From assembly GCF_003334385.1 (NCBI RefSeq), contig NZ_QOWN01000035.1: a stretch of DNA of 44,545 bases; one strand, written 5' to 3'. Below, in pieces: positions 6,918 through 7,040 of this stretch (positions are counted from its first letter, which is position 1; every line of letters begins with the position of its first letter). This stretch comes from Escherichia coli (GTDB lineage: Bacteria > Pseudomonadota > Gammaproteobacteria > Enterobacterales > Enterobacteriaceae). The notes beneath the pieces were generated by a model, which saw only the letters and a list, made by a program, of their open reading frames with translations, ran no database searches and had not been told where the DNA came from. Position numbers and translations under genes: made by a program.

Positions 6918-7040
6918 TGTTGTGAAATGCCGGATGCGGCGTAAACGCCTTATCCGGCCTACAAAAGCATGCAAATTCAATATATTGCAGAGTTCACGTA
7001 GGCCTGATAAGCGTAGCGCATCAGGCAGTTTTGCGTTTGT
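6918..7040. repeat. RIP-type BIME (REP - IHF-site-like spacer - REP)
   Basis: gccggatgcggcgtaaacgccttatccggcctac ... caaattcaatatattgc ... gtaggcctgataagcgtagcgcatcaggc; nearly identical to the copy at 23627..23740. Confidence 0.65.

Follow-up and report, generated by a model that had tools for sequence, protein, structure and literature searches.

The window, that is, the whole stretch of 44,545 nucleotides analyzed here, contains two repeats between convergent genes, at 6908-7050 (unit A) and 23613-23753 (unit B). The best explanation of the pair, to which I would assign a probability of about 0.9, is that they are two independent, catalogued members of BIME-1 (RIP/RIB), a non-coding repeat of about 140 bp. 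Both repeats are already known, textbook elements in the best-annotated of bacterial genomes. What they offer is a quantitative negative, since deletion or duplication between A and B was seen in none of 5,426 complete Escherichia coli genomes and the copies are not specially related, and an illustration of how small intergenic repeats vary amongst strains, with filled, empty and other-repeat alleles and the docking of IS621.

BIME-1 is defined as a single Y-L-Z1 unit (PMC3333891) with a size of about 140 bp (PMC1187871), and reference sequences of the Y and Z1 REPs are printed in PMC11208160. The agreement with those references is perfect for unit A and one nucleotide short in each REP of unit B, which upholds the assignment to RIP-type BIMEs made in the preliminary description. 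The features to which I will refer are the following, with positions counted from the first nucleotide of the window.

1654-1777, no strand assigned: BIME-2-like cluster of three REPs between hcxB and ybiJ, consisting of Y (minus strand, 1654-1688), Z2 (plus strand, 1695-1731) and a degenerate Y (minus strand, 1743-1777)
6365-6847, plus strand: ybiA
6908-7050, plus strand: BIME-1 (RIP/RIB) unit A, delimited by BLAST alignment to unit B and matching the 145-nt family consensus
6928-6962, plus strand: Y-type REP of unit A, in iREP orientation, ending in CTAC, 35/35 against the published Y, TGCCGGATGCGGCGTAAACGCCTTATCCGGCCTAC
6963-6996, plus strand: L linker of unit A, with the IHF-like site ATTCAATATATTG at 6975-6987
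6970-6989: small palindrome TGCAA..TTGCA inside the L linker of unit A
6997-7026, minus strand: Z1-type REP of unit A, GTAG end toward the linker, 30/30 against the published Z1, containing the IS621 target ATCAGGCCTAC on the minus strand
7052-7072, minus strand: GC-rich hairpin ATGCCGGGCATAGCCCGGCAT, just past the rhlE stop and outside the BIME, found by folding
Ending at 7079, minus strand: rhlE
Minus strand: Moco riboswitch and moaABCDE
22668-23576, plus strand: ybhK/yvcK
23605-23758, plus strand: presence/absence segment at locus B, 154 bp, consisting of unit B and a few bases on each side, with CTTC on both sides
23613-23753, plus strand: BIME-1 (RIP/RIB) unit B, delimited by BLAST against unit A and by the family consensus
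23633-23667, plus strand: Y-type REP of unit B, 34/35 against the published Y
23668-23700, plus strand: L linker of unit B, with its IHF-like site at 23679-23691
23701-23730, minus strand: Z1-type REP of unit B, 29/30 against the published Z1
Ending at 23768, minus strand: uvrB

Both units have one layout, in direct orientation: a flank, the Y REP, a CAAATTCAATATATTGC linker, the Z1 REP and a second flank. The first REP has 35 nt with CCTAC at its end, the second about 29-30 nt with GTAGGCC at its start, and the inverted REPs face the linker in both cases (...GGCCTAC, a linker of 34 nt in A or 33 nt in B, then (C/T)GTAGGCC...). The AT-rich core of the linker, GCAAATTCAATATATTGC, is identical in A and B and agrees with the consensus of the family. 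The left flank reads GACAAGTGCTTGTTGTGAAA in unit A and GACAAAGTGCGCGTTGTTTA in unit B, and the right flank ..GTTTTGCGTTTGTTCATCAGCCT and ..GTTTTCCGTTTGTCATCAGTCT, respectively. The repeat includes these flank motifs (GACAAAGTGCGC... and ...GCGTTTGTCATCAG), which are conserved, so the elements, real as they are, extend beyond the limits of 6918-7040 and 23627-23740 first drawn for them. The arrangement itself, two REP-[sequence]-REP elements in the same orientation 16.7 kb apart, was described correctly: the distance from start to start is 16,705 bp.

Each unit lies between the stop codons of a convergent gene pair, ybiA(+)/rhlE(-) for A and ybhK(+)/uvrB(-) for B. The spacer that hosts A measures 231 bp, from the ybiA stop (6845-6847) to the rhlE stop (7079-7081, minus strand), and that of B 191 bp, from the ybhK/yvcK stop (23574-23576) to the uvrB stop (23768-23770, minus strand). 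There is one BIME unit per spacer, and a scan for REPs found no additional REP in either. The Y consensus (34 nt, up to 3 mismatches allowed) occurs three times in the window and not at all in 100 shuffled versions of it. The consensus sequence of BIME-1 folds as a single long hairpin in which the flank GACAAAG is paired to the flank CTTTGTC and Y to Z1. Folded in its genomic context, unit A shows two separate hairpins, one for each REP, and its spacer folds more stably than shuffled sequences do, with z = -4.6 for the plus and -3.3 for the minus strand.

The genomic setting is of the K-12 type. Positions 77-31987 align to K-12 MG1655 (NC_000913.3, from 839,238 down to 807,328, reverse strand) with 10 mismatches in 31.9 kb, and both spacers are 100% identical to their K-12 counterparts. 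The feature table of RefSeq NC_000913.3, made up of CDS and ncRNA features only, has no repeat_region lines. The block between the two units runs rhlE-cecR-ybhGFSR-ybhQ-ybhP-clsB-ybhN-ybhM-ybhL-moaEDCBA-ybhK, and so it does include the genes from ybhGFSR through the moa operon, as was first said of it, with its full extent corrected to rhlE through ybhK. The window begins (1-77) and ends (44471-44545) with the ends of IS186/IS421-type elements (IS4 family) in the same reading direction, from which it appears that the contig breaks at copies of the IS. One of these insertions, with its junction at 77 upstream of ybiX, is found in 87 of the 5,426 genomes and is missing from K-12 MG1655. Homology to K-12 stops at 31987, at the core of lambda attB, GCTTTTTTATACTAA (minus strand, between ybhB and ybhC). 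Beyond attB lies a segment of a P22/Sf6/IME10-like prophage (31968-44470), cut by the IS186-type element at the end of the window, with genes for a tail needle, DNA ejection proteins and head completion that are 95-96% identical to those of phages IME10, Sf6 and Sf101.

How alike are A and B? They had been called nearly identical, differing by a few substitutions, which overstates their likeness: a pairwise BLAST alignment of 144 columns has 86.1% identity, 16 mismatches and 4 gap openings, and the longest exact runs are 29, 22, 18 and 16 nt. This figure gains meaning from comparison with the family at large. One genome per species was scanned with the exact pattern CCTAC..AAATTCAATATATTG..GTAGG, yielding 89 stretches; 96 copies, A and B included, were extracted, and one unrelated sequence was dropped (n = 95). 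The 95 copies give a clean consensus of 145 nt, both flanks included. Nearly all come from Escherichia species and Pseudocitrobacter, and a few of the matches are to tiny or odd contigs that resemble contamination. The pattern demanded an exact 15-nt L core and intact CCTAC and GTAGG, and it recovers few copies per E. coli genome; the family is therefore undercounted and its true taxonomic limits are hardly addressed. For that reason the lack of any Salmonella or Klebsiella copy amongst the results of the exact-core scan is not read as a true taxonomic limit. Within E. coli, a 45-nt query with the L motif was run against the 5,426 complete genomes; among the matches listed, the median is 29 places in each genome and the range 9-44, and the characterization of the repeats as ordinary enterobacterial features is borne out.

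Two side observations arose from the scan. Perfect Escherichia-type BIME-1 units occur on very short or metagenome-assembled contigs labelled Bacteroides, Desulfosporosinus, Methylobacterium and Collinsella (L020, L021, L063, L064), which are most simply explained as E. coli contamination of these assemblies. Escherichia sp. MOD1-EC7003 (L077, 376-995) has five tandem Y-L-Z1 units at spacings of 115 nt or 230 nt. Under the published scheme, where BIME-1 is described as single, this array would be classed as an atypical BIME.

The multiple alignment of the 95 copies yields 4,465 pairs, many of them interspecies. The identity of A to B in it is 76.5%, a value that 61% of the pairs equal or exceed. 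Unit B is closer to the family consensus (89%) and to its E. albertii ortholog at ybhK/uvrB (92%; L011) than it is to A. Ranked as neighbors, B is 14th of 94 for A, and A is 76th of 94 for B. The identity of A to B thus falls in the middle of the distribution of family pairs and argues for no special relationship between them. The idea that one of the two is a local copy of the other, produced by segmental duplication, can point to their nearness and their common orientation. Their identity, however, is typical of random pairs in the family, those between species included, their similarity stops at the boundaries of the 143-bp unit, and an ortholog of B occupies the corresponding site in E. 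albertii, whereas A goes together with the ybiA cassette. I give this origin next to no credence, and it was rejected on the family-wide distribution of identities.

The preliminary description proposed that the two direct repeats could mediate deletion or duplication of the bracketed block, which would follow if A and B recombined in a RecA-dependent manner, deleting or tandemly duplicating the 16.7 kb from rhlE to ybhK. The copies are in direct orientation and have one perfect match of 29 bp, which is close to the minimum that RecA needs for efficient pairing. There are also precedents that make such an event possible in principle: a REP-REP event formed F'128, and REPs are found at lambda bio junctions (both as cited in PMC1525189). 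The predicted junctions of unequal crossing-over were built and looked for in all 5,426 complete genomes. In none of them was the deletion junction (611 nt of flank from the ybiA side joined to 611 nt from the uvrB side) contiguous, nor was the tandem-duplication junction (the 3' flank of ybhK joined to the 3' flank of rhlE). As a positive control, a query made of the flanks of locus B alone was bridged over the 143-bp element and scored as 100% covered, which validates the joining logic. A deletion could be visible only where both elements exist; A occurs in no more than 4,299 genomes and B in 3,676, which leaves about 2,550 or more that qualify. Being unstable, tandem duplications are seldom seen in finished assemblies, and so their absence is weak evidence on how often they arise.

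Other considerations also weigh against recombination between A and B. The identity is just 86% and is split into short runs; there are about 30 equally similar partners in each genome, making this one pair among hundreds equally good; and IS elements, such as those of the IS186 type whose ends flank the window, are longer, identical, and better substrates. The block carries the moa operon, moreover, and natural selection would probably act against losing it. Judged from their sequences, with 86% identity and no perfect match longer than 29 bp, A and B are marginal substrates for homologous recombination, and I consider rearrangement between them highly improbable. The pair might instead meet in space, by way of IHF or of HU with REP-derived RNA, and so anchor a loop or topological domain of 16.7 kb. 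Contacts between REPs dependent on HU and naRNA4 have been found by 3C (PMC4550694), and BIMEs have been proposed as barriers between supercoil domains (PMC6907758). A re-analysis of Hi-C data, in contrast, found no excess of REP-REP contacts, and deletion of REP325 had no effect on the nucleoid (bioRxiv 10.64898/2026.03.23.713779); A or B, furthermore, can be missing singly in many strains. That these two units anchor a loop is hardly credible on such evidence. A last alternative is that the central parts of A and B are sRNA genes of the Rfam family ES036/CssrF. Both linkers do exceed the gathering score of RF02751 (37.6), with 43.3 bits at 6963-7005 and 43.4 bits at 23668-23709, and CssrF was seen as a single Northern band of about 290 nt at dacB/yhbZ, a different BIME-1 locus, in Shigella (PMC3071730). 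Against this, a promoter scan found no sigma-70-like site in either spacer, and transcripts that read through both units are to be expected, placed as these are in the 3' regions of convergent genes. Since the 43-nt ES036 model amounts to the L linker of BIME-1 and the start of Z1, it should match every copy of BIME-1, and I regard independent sRNA genes here as very unlikely. What the ES036 and naRNA4 models detect in such spacers is repeat modules, and their matches should not be taken for genes.

The reading of A and B as independent BIME-1 copies accords with their distribution, for each is present or absent independently amongst E. coli genomes. This behavior of BIME-1 has been published (PMC1187871, citing Bachellier et al. 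1997). At ybhK/uvrB, three alleles were distinguished with a flank-only query: a span of 843 bp (filled), one of 689 bp (empty), and one of about 800 bp (another repeat). Strain Ecol_542, with about 94% identity in the flanks, provides an example of the empty site. In the third allele (L094 and L095 were compared), the site holds an unrelated GC-rich palindromic repeat, TTCCCCTCACCCTCTCCCCGGAGGGGCGAGGGGAAC, which I take to be BoxC-like. Unit B is found in 3,676 of the 5,426 genomes (at least 80% coverage of a 261-nt query) and missing in about a third. E. albertii has B at the same site, making loss in some E. coli lineages the simpler reading.

Variation at the other locus is broader. The interval between dinG and rhlE (6365-7050 in the window; L003 and L004 were compared) is a replaceable cassette. 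The K-12 type has ybiA with BIME-1, or a NADAR variant that is 92% identical. In O157:H7 the place is taken by the gene for the type III secretion effector EspX2 (espX2) and in strain 43905 by the toxin-antitoxin pair parE/paaA2, both without BIME. In strain 43905, homology returns from about 7050, the right end of unit A, and the hairpin at 7052-7072 is kept. In O157:H7, it returns only from 7078, and the sequence of the hairpin is not visible in the alignment. Unit A is also a target of insertion: in strain K99B (L002, 3403-4691), the element IS621 (IS110 family, with a bridge-RNA recombinase) lies inside the Z1 REP, at window position 7001/7002. The junctions read cacgtAG/atactgt... and ...atacaAG/gcctgat, with the CT core duplicated at both ends, and on the other strand the site is the published natural target, ATCAGGCCTAC. 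A junction that includes unique flank from ybiA was found in 224 of the 5,426 complete genomes.

The coincidence of the right edge of the variable dinG-rhlE segment with the right end of BIME-1, together with the recurrent landing of IS621 in Z1, suggests a tentative further reading, that BIME-1 copies such as the one at rhlE/ybiA serve as docking or exchange points that drive the turnover of adjacent gene cassettes. I think this quite unlikely. If true, it would make BIME-1 more than a passive repeat of 3' untranslated regions. A link between BIME-1 and strain-specific loops has already been published (PMC1187871), and so only the causal mechanism would be new.

The preliminary description also likened the AT-rich spacer to a site for IHF, and the sequence ATTCAATATATTG, present in both linkers, does differ from the IHF consensus, WATCAANNNNTTR, at just one position (12/13). 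The match is not significant by itself, as the window has 53 such matches (up to one mismatch) with 38 expected. The L linker of BIME-1 often carries an IHF site (PMC3333891), and binding of IHF to the family was reported by Boccard and Prentki (1993; cited in PMC4550694; see also PMC3333891). The text of an IHF/HU ChIP-seq paper (PMC3333857) mentions neither REP nor BIME.

As to function, REPs act in termination and in the stabilization of mRNA (PMC3333891), and those between convergent genes accompany higher expression of both genes (bioRxiv 10.64898/2026.03.23.713779). A scan for terminators found none with a T-run inside either element. By analogy with the literature on the family, the REP hairpins of A and B would be transcribed at the ends of the flanking mRNAs, where they may block 3' exonucleases, depending on context, and terminate transcription in part, while the DNA of the L linker would be bound by IHF. 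The REP-associated tyrosine transposase (RAYT, or TnpA-REP) would spread the copies and perhaps also remove them. That enzyme binds a REP bearing GTAG and cleaves the linker and the inverted REP at CT sites (PMC3333891), offering a route by which BIMEs could spread and vary.

Two other occurrences of REP sequence in the window are of a different kind. The cluster at 1654-1777, earlier noted at 1656-1775 as a pair of REPs, is real and consists of three. The first, Y(-), has 1 mismatch and is separated by a 6-nt linker from Z2(+), with 3 mismatches; the third has more than 6 differences, and the whole amounts to just 1.5 units. The Rfam model naRNA4 matches at 1657-1727 with 78.4 bits, because that model is a Y+Z2 pair. 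The cluster overlaps the 19-codon K-12 ORF ybiE, which is at least partly REP sequence, and adjoins the sRNA zbiJ (L001, 42436-42563). A lone degenerate Y-like REP hairpin, TTGCCGGACGCAGCGGTGCCTTATCCGGCTAAC, is found at 19530-19562, about 6 nt downstream of the moaE stop. An effect on translation termination has been reported for REPs very near a stop codon.

Compared with known systems, units A and B differ in no structural respect from BIME-1, for which RIP (repetitive IHF-binding palindromic element) and RIB (reiterative ihf BIME) are other names: like BIME-1, each has one Y and one Z1, inverted with respect to each other, and between them a long conserved linker (L) containing an IHF-like site; each occurs singly and not in tandem, measures about 140 bp, is situated where transcription units have their 3' ends, and is present in some strains and absent from others. 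They are, in fact, the K-12 MG1655 copies, with 100% identity. From BIME-2, the gyrase-binding arrays of Y and Z2, they are set apart by having Z1 instead of Z2, by the long L linker, and by the lack of tandem repetition. It is the cluster at 1654-1777 that resembles BIME-2, in its Y REP, short linker, Z2 REP and match to naRNA4, but it is limited to three REPs, the third degenerate, whereas BIME-2 is usually tandem. The linkers of A and B pass the threshold of ES036 (CssrF), yet that model is a 43-nt piece of the repeat, and there is no sign of an independent gene. Finally, the REPINs of Pseudomonas, hairpin-forming REP doublets mobilized by RAYT, are like BIME-1 in that the BIME-1 consensus folds as one long hairpin and is present or absent as a unit. 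The family of REP sequences is nonetheless different, the arms of BIME-1 are Y and Z1 rather than copies of one REP, and its loop, unlike that of REPINs, holds a conserved linker of the IHF type.
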